From NCBI RefSeq assembly GCF_055900595.2, contig NZ_CM148325.1: 64,000 nucleotides of DNA; one strand, given 5' to 3'. How positions within the stretch are numbered: position 1 is the first letter of the stretch; each line of letters opens with the position of its first letter. The position numbers were made by a program, and so were the translations under genes. The notes beneath the pieces are model-generated. The model did no database searches. It saw only the letters and a program-made list of their open reading frames with translations, and was not told the DNA's origin. Positions 61,186 through 62,572 of this stretch are shown here, in pieces.

Positions 61186-62572
61186 CCCTGTAAATAATTC
61201 TGTGTAACTGCCGCCGTATTAAAGGTGCTCGCTAAGGCGGTCACCGAACTCGATAATAAAACGGCTCATTGCCAGCCGCCAGTTCTGGATTGGCATACTC
61301 CATTTTTTGACGCCGACTGTATCGCCAGATAAATCACTTTTCGCACCGAGTCGTCCGTTGGGAACACCTTGCGCTTCTTTATCGCCTGCCGAATGACACT
61401 GTTCAGCGATTCGATGGCATTCGTCGTGTAGATGGCCTTGCGGATATCCGGTGGGTAACCGAAGAAGGTGTTGAGATTTTCCCAGTGTGTGCGCCAGCTC
61501 TTGCTGATTTGCGGGTATTTTTCATCCCAGACGCCTGCAAACTTATCCAACGCCATCAACGCCGTTTCCTCTGTCGGGGCCTGATATACCGCTTTCAGCC
61601 CGCTGGTGACGGCTTTGTAATCCTTCCACGACACGAATTTCAGGCTGTTGCGCACCATATGGATGATGCAGAGCTGAATATGCGTCTGCGGGTACACGCT
61701 ATTTATCGCTTCCGGGAAGCCTTTCAGGCCGTCCACGAAGGCGATAAGGATATCGTTCAGGCCGCGATTTTTCAGTTCCGTCAGTACATTCAGCCAGAAC
61801 TTTGCACCTTCATTTTCGGCCAGCCACATATCCAGCAGCTCTTTCTGACCGTCGGTATTGATGCCCAGCGCGAGGAACACCGCTTTGTTAATGACACTCC
61901 CGCTGTGACGAACCTTAACCACAATACAGTCAAGATAAACAATGGGATACAGTGCATCCAACGGTCGGTTTTGCCATTCAGAGACCTGTTCTTTAACCGC
62001 ATCGGTCACTTTGGATATCAGCGTGGGCGAGACATCGGCGTCGTACATTTCTTTGAAGGCTGAGGTAATTTCGCGGGTAGTCATCCCTCTGGCATACAGC
62101 GCCAGGATCTGGTTGTCCATGCCGGTAATGCGGGTCTGATTTTTCTTCACCAGTTGTGGTTCGAAGGTATTTTCACGGTCACGCGGCGTGTTAAGTTCGA
62201 TCTCGCCATCATCGCACAATACCGTTTTTGACGAGTAGCCATTACGGGTATTAGAGCCTGATTTAGGAGCATTTTTCTCATGACCTAGATGGTCAGTCAG
62301 TTCTGCATTGAGCGCCGTTTCGACGGTAAGCTTTGTCAACATGCGTGAAAACTGGTTGAGGTCGGCTTCGGTTTTAAGGCCTTTGGCCAGTTCAGCCGCA
62401 AGGACTTTAAGTTTCTTTTCGTCCATCGTTTGCCTGTCTCCGTTGTTGGAGTGAACATATCAAAAACAGGCAATTACACAATTTTAATTACAGTCTCTTC
62501 AGAATGGGTAATCAGTGACCGTCCTGACGGTCACTTTAAAGAAAATGCATATTACACAGAATGGTAAACAGG
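61186..62572 (-). mobile_element. IS256-family insertion sequence, boundaries approximate
   Basis: Imperfect inverted repeats CCTGTAAATAATTCTGTGTAAC (61186) and its counterpart GCATATTACACAGAATGGTAAACAGG (62547-62572) flank the transposase gene. Confidence 0.7.
61220..62426 (-). pseudogene. IS256-family transposase with a frameshift in a homopolymer near the 3' end
   Basis: ORF-track frame (386 aa) ends at 61266; the expected C-terminus KKWSMPIQNWRLAMSRFIIEFGDRL continues in the +1 frame to a stop at 61220; the switch sits at the T6/A6 run 61315-61320. Confidence 0.8.

Follow-up and report, generated by a model that had tools for sequence, protein, structure and literature searches.

The stretch of DNA analysed here (the window) comprises 64,000 nucleotides of contig NZ_CM148325.1, and near its right-hand end lies a 1314-bp insertion sequence (IS) of the IS256 family, at positions 61184–62497, with complete ends. 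The IS sits between a gene for a sigma-factor-like HTH protein (60447–60902) and a run of IS remnants. To its right, positions 62600–64000 hold an IS481-type integrase-core pseudogene and a frameshifted ISL3 pseudogene, as annotated at the identical RefSeq locus, and the remnants are followed by an MFS transporter gene and then, just past the end of the window, by the aerobactin genes iucA and iucB. The neighbourhood of the IS is a typical decayed pathogenicity-island edge. Further to the left, a gene for a YadA-like adhesin (58691–60385) contains a 99-bp tandem repeat at 59506–59817 (3.2 copies, 96% matches). Two sequences that recur in the comparisons below, the genome of E. coli FDN-11 and a metagenome contig, L007 (OEQN01000609.1), align in shifted registers at this repeat, and its copy number may therefore vary between strains. 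The parts of the IS and of its insertion site are listed in Table 1.

Table 1. Coordinates of the IS256-family element, its insertion site and its altered segments within the window.
Feature	Position	Strand	Basis
Left copy of the target-site duplication, TTCAGAAT	61176–61183	.	exact direct repeat; single copy in the empty site of FDN-11
IRR, at the 3′ end of the transposase gene; IS boundary at 61184	61184–61212	−	inverted repeat; end identical to ISEc39 copies
Transposase pseudogene: all 402 codons of the ancestral gene, less 1 nt	61219–62426	−	repaired translation; Pfam; NCBIfam; PGAP
Stranded native C-terminal codons, WSMPIQNWRLAMSRFIIEFGDRLSEHL, in the −1 frame	61222–61302	−	tblastn; aligns with the catalytic-domain end of ISCth4 TnpA
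Twelve aberrant codons, NGVCQSRTGGWQ, and premature stop (61266–61268)	61266–61304	−	ORF list and translation; tblastn breakpoint at K374
A6 run in the coding sense (T6 on the plus strand), site of the 1-nt contraction from A7	61303–61308	−	alignment gap relative to ISEc39
Mosaic patch 2 and adjacent changes: ~15 substitutions, including G199D, G213N, Q224N and C230F	61738–61831	−	absent from the A6 metagenome variant
Mosaic patch 1: 28 of 50 substitutions against ISEc39; same sequence as another IS256-family element, from IncF plasmids	62058–62157	−	substitution map
IRL, upstream of the transposase gene; IS boundary at 62497	62469–62497	−	inverted repeat; GAGACTGTAATTAAAATTGTGTAATTGCC identical in ISEc39 copies
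Right copy of the target-site duplication, TTCAGAAT	62498–62505	.	exact direct repeat; alignment; empty-site comparison

The ends of the element, GAGACTG...CAGGGTC, were set by alignment with three relatives. Its inverted-repeat arms pair over 25 nt (61188–61212 with 62469–62493; 80% complementary) and measure 29 nt by alignment, and a direct repeat, TTCAGAAT(G), flanks both ends of the element at 61176 and 62498. Each of the three aligned relatives is likewise bordered by an 8-bp target duplication of its own. An unoccupied version of the site is found in E. coli FDN-11, in which a single TTCAGAAT links the two flanks, and the element thus came to its present site by transposition. This event duplicated 8 bp of target (TTCAGAAT) and placed the IS in intergenic DNA on the border of the chromosomal aerobactin island. 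Its length of ~1.3 kb, its imperfect inverted repeats of a few tens of bp and a target-site duplication within the 8–9 bp range are all as expected for the IS256 family.

Two side observations concern the sequence at and around the ends of the element. When the left flank is compared with contig L007, three differences fall within 25 bp of the insertion point (61150, 61157 and 61173). At 61150 and 61173, L007 carries the allele of the empty site in FDN-11, and this agreement places the occupied locus on at least two flank haplotypes. Separately, one end of the IS (61184–61260, ~76 bp comprising IRR and the 3′ end of the transposase gene) has a ~90% match in a short stretch annotated as part of yjhR in K-12, B and a great many further E. 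coli genomes; the yjhR stretch resembles a solo end left by an old IS256-family element, and it is widespread.

The transposase gene, on the minus strand, is interrupted near its 3′ end. The present ORF (61266–62426) encodes 386 aa, made up of 374 native residues followed by 12 aberrant residues and a stop codon, and 28 native residues are lost. Addition of one base to the A6 run yields an uninterrupted 402-aa protein, referred to below as the repaired protein, which ends ...SASKKWSMPIQNWRLAMSRFIIEFGDRLSEHL and has its stop codon at 61219–61221. With this repaired protein as a tblastn query, residues 1–374 map to 62426–61305 and residues 374–402 to 61308–61222 in a different frame, both with 100% identity. 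Intact ISEc39 transposases end in exactly the 28 residues that are out of frame here, and the frameshift is therefore not a chance feature. In an alignment with two intact ISEc39 copies, the missing A is the single gap (column 1239), which confirms the view taken in the preliminary description that an A7 tract had contracted to A6 in the coding sense. The same description was right in reporting an IS256-family transposase frameshifted in an A/T homopolymer, and it misplaced the homopolymer by 12 nt: positions 61315–61320, where the run was said to lie, read GACTGT, and the T6 tract at 61303–61308 is the sole homopolymer of at least 6 bases within 61150–62520. The frame assigned there to the native C-terminus, +1, also has to be corrected, since after a 1-nt deletion it lies in the −1 (= +2) frame with respect to the upstream ORF. 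As it stands, the IS does not possess the uninterrupted ~400-aa transposase ORF that is usual in the IS256 family; it is a defective member of the family, not a non-member.

Pfam model PF00872 matches the repaired protein with E = 4e-115 and 385 bits (cutoff 21) and the 386-aa product with E = 3e-114, and NCBIfam model NF033543 (transpos_IS256) gives 418 bits against a cutoff of 150. These profile matches point to a transposase of the Mutator/IS256 type, and the family assignment is firm. The name ISEc39 is used here as PGAP gives it to the nearest intact copies. Nucleotide identity to copies so annotated is 95.7–96.2%, and the repaired protein shares 386 of 402 residues (96%) with WP_021573132.1. 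By the ISfinder convention, isoforms of an IS share at least 95% nucleotide identity and at least 98% transposase amino-acid identity. The window IS lies above the first value, as judged against the PGAP-annotated copies, and below the second because of its two mosaic patches. At the site of the run, all relatives are in frame: ISEc39 reads TCA AAA AAA TGG both in a chromosomal (L002) and in a plasmid-borne (L003) copy, an 86%-identical relative reads TCA AAG AAA TGG, and a plasmid-type relative reads TCA CAG AAA TGG. PGAP annotates the same span in NZ_CP033635.1 as 'IS256 family transposase, frameshifted'. The IS is an ordinary one, of a known type and already annotated as a pseudogene in public genomes.

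Within the window, a tblastn search with the repaired protein found no second IS256-family copy to supply transposase in trans. The window also contains an intact 402-aa ORF on the plus strand (50704–51912), the translation of which begins MCELDILHDSLYQFCPELHLKRLN... and has the same length as the repaired IS256-family transposase. We take its product for a transposase of the IS10/Tn10 type (IS4 family), with no relationship to the IS256-family gene.

Homopolymers are the classic place for sequencing and assembly errors, and if the missing base were such an error the real gene would be intact. The distribution of the A6 allele speaks strongly against this reading. When an 80-nt query centred on the run was searched against 5,426 complete E. 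coli genomes, 65 independently sequenced genomes gave an exact A6 match, with one copy in each A6 genome among the matches listed. They were isolated from chickens, humans, swine, wild birds (kites) and flies, and their accessions fall into many unrelated series. A further 212 records in the same collection match the query at 95–99%; among the matches listed, those of full length span 81 nt, consistent with A7, so that ISEc39 copies elsewhere were read with the one extra base. An IS copy at least 99% identical to that of the window occurs in exactly 65 genomes. A 2.3-kb query with both flanks included is covered to at least 80% in 62 genomes, which thus represent the same locus beside the aerobactin island. 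The independent metagenome contig L007 also has A6, with the same left junction, and a run of six bases is short for systematic error. Taken together, the 65 genomes, the metagenome contig and the frameshift call made by PGAP exclude a sequencing error, to which we attach a practically negligible probability. Of the two origins that had been proposed for the missing base, a genuine slip and an error of sequencing, the former is thereby borne out. Nor do reference copies of the IS share this sequence with an intact shorter product, a finding that had been named in advance as the one that would overturn the frameshift; reference ISEc39 has A7 and encodes 402 aa. The indel is biological, no assembly correction is needed at the site, and the copy should remain a pseudogene.

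A phase-variable A tract, one that slips recurrently, was considered and ruled out. The full-length matches listed that are not A6 all span 81 nt, an A8-type span is found nowhere among the matches listed, and every A6 copy belongs to the same locus. With a single slip event to be seen in ~277 records, the tract is not a recurrent switch. Searches with a junction-specific 30-mer, designed to find an A7 progenitor of the exact mosaic isoform, gave 0 matches in species-representative genomes and 2 in metagenome contigs; one of the latter is A6 and the other ends before the run, and no A7 version was found in either set. The heptanucleotide AAAAAAA is much scarcer in E. coli genes than expected, whichever the frame, for which transcriptional slippage or a high indel mutation rate have been put forward by the authors as possible reasons (PMC4066793). 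ISEc39 carries an uninterrupted A7, and in its relatives the tract is broken by G or C. The presence in ISEc39 of an uninterrupted tract of a kind that is scarce in E. coli genes explains why this position gave way, and the window IS neatly illustrates how an A7 tract can be where a transposase gene is weakest.

What the frameshift removes was mapped with the aid of TnpA of ISCth4 (PDB 6xg8/6xgw/6xgx), a solved copy-out/paste-in transposase of the IS256 family; ISCth4 is a different element, from a Firmicute, and it served only to locate the end of the catalytic domain. In a phmmer comparison with this protein (PDB 6xg8), residues 18–397 were aligned with E = 7e-108. The DDE triad (D166, D232 and E339) and the CxxH motif (C253 and H256) align with D175, D241, E348, C262 and H265 of ISCth4, the roles of which have been described (PMC7780238). 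The triad and the C/DxxH motif by which the IS256 family is recognized are thus both in place, and all of these residues are encoded upstream of the slip. The catalytic domain of ISCth4 is formed by residues 165–261 plus 325–407, that is, it runs to the C-terminus (PMC7780238), and the last 23 residues aligned with ISCth4 are identical at 9 of 23 positions across phyla, including the KW..NW residues. The A6 product keeps the N-terminal dimerisation and DNA-binding domains as well as catalytic residues D166/D232/E339 and C253/H256. The end of its catalytic domain is swapped for 12 unrelated residues, and it is most likely misfolded or inactive.

We infer that the slip was inactivating, since the catalytic domain has been deprived of its last 28 residues and the matches listed include no second A6 copy. 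The Pfam and NCBIfam models stop at about residues 371–377; the family profile is thus least conserved in the tail that was lost, and this weakens the case for inactivation. Intact ISEc39 is itself usually single-copy, with a median of 1 place per genome, and for this reason single-copy status discriminates poorly. The shortened protein could in principle still work, whether by catalysing transposition in a shorter form or by binding DNA and so inhibiting related transposases, since the dimerisation, DNA-binding and HTH regions at its N-terminus are kept along with all catalytic residues and Pfam still matches it (E = 3e-114). However, no intact relative among those compared ends at this point, and the 12-residue tail is frame-shift noise. 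Moreover, among the matches listed the A6 genomes offer no second chromosomal ISEc39 to be regulated, and the later substitutions at conserved residues, described below, look like relaxed constraint. We consider it very unlikely that the 386-aa product has a function of its own, and an inactivated transposase is preferred.

A different way in which the gene might have escaped complete inactivation is ribosomal frameshifting. The deletion created, in the zero frame, the sequence UCA AAA AAU, which contains a −1 slippery heptamer of the X_XXY_YYZ type, A_AAA_AAU, and a −1 shift on A6 would restore the native frame (...SK(K/N)WSMPIQNW...) and with it the whole tail. A leaky pseudogene of this kind would make a little full-length transposase, much as IS1 does. 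In E. coli, 39 of 64 stimulator-free X_XXZ_ZZN heptamers shift at 2–10 times the background of ~0.055%, and low-efficiency motifs suffice for IS1 (PMC4066793); C_AAA_AAA gave 25–60% frameshifting in an overexpression vector (PMC1851650). By this route the change from A7 to A6 may have produced an IS1-like two-frame gene, with full-length transposase arising through −1 slips at ~0.1–1% and the element attenuated rather than dead, an outcome that we regard as improbable. No stimulatory RNA structure was found 3′ of the run, where the 73 nt that follow the site fold no better than shuffled sequences (MFE −18.8 kcal/mol versus a shuffle mean of −18.9; z = 0.02). Nor is the two-frame layout conserved, ISEc39, the 86%-identical relative and the plasmid-type relative all being in frame. 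In addition, no second A6 copy appears among the matches listed for the 65 genomes, G199D and C230F fall at conserved positions, and efficient transcriptional slippage needs ~9 A's (PMC1088944). A leaky pseudogene is in our judgement unlikely, and we favour a dead copy.

The history of this dead copy can be followed further in its mosaic patches. Both patches match a different IS256-family element, which is carried on IncF plasmids of E. coli and Salmonella; at patch 1 its identity is 99.2% over 127 bp in 69 plasmid records. Inside the two tracts the identity is 99%, and elsewhere the element is ~79% identical to the window IS. This pattern suggests an ISEc39 backbone with patches, produced by gene conversion between non-identical IS256-family copies. 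IS1414, which bears EAST1/astA, was considered as a patch donor and set aside; a motif search for EAST1-like peptides found none in the window IS, L006 or L007.

Contig L007 (3921–6350 and beyond) contains the same insertion with A6, and is without patch 2, G199D, C230F and A288T. Inside the IS it differs from the window at 17 positions and has the ISEc39 base at 17 of 17, yet it carries A6 and patch 1. The frameshift is for this reason placed before those later changes. As drawn from this one metagenome contig, the simplest order of events would be insertion, then the A7-to-A6 slip, and then, in the window lineage, acquisition of patch 2, G199D, C230F and A288T. Past the point equivalent to window position 62167, L007 continues as the plasmid-type IS256-family element; this far end may be a real hybrid, or it may reflect an assembly switch (chimera) inside the shared ~100-bp patch 1. 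The residues G199 and C230 are shared even by ISCth4, and catalytic D232 follows two residues after C230. Substitutions at such conserved residues, together with the patches, are consistent with continued decay of the copy.

Our reading, to which we assign a probability of roughly 0.88, is that the window IS is a complete but dead ISEc39-like copy of the IS256 family, which transposed to a site beside the aerobactin island, contracted from A7 to A6, and has since been passively inherited while decaying. In this sequence of events, an ISEc39-like element inserted at the edge of the aerobactin island, duplicating TTCAGAAT. A single A was later lost from the A7 tract close to the 3′ end of the transposase gene. 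This deletion is seen in the alignment, and strand slippage during replication is its probable cause. Translation now departs from the native frame after Lys374, adds 12 unrelated residues and stops, and the resulting protein is most likely misfolded or inactive. Since the slip, the copy would have been carried passively with the island, and its decay would have gone on as another IS256-family element contributed gene-conversion patches and conserved residues were substituted. The IS is a stable, single-event marker of one aerobactin-adjacent island variant, present in ~1% of complete E. coli genomes.

Two known systems provide points of comparison. Like IS1, the window copy consists of two overlapping frames joined at an A6-pyrimidine heptamer, and a full-length product would require a −1 shift. 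In IS1, however, this layout is ancestral and conserved, whereas in the window copy it stems from a one-off mutation, with no stimulator and no sign of activity. The comparison with ISEc39 is much closer. The window copy differs from ISEc39 in having A6 in place of A7, in its shortened product and in its two clustered patches of another IS256-family element; the two agree at 96% of nucleotides over the full element, have the same terminal inverted repeats and an 8-bp target duplication each, and restoring the A gives the window copy the 402-codon gene of ISEc39.
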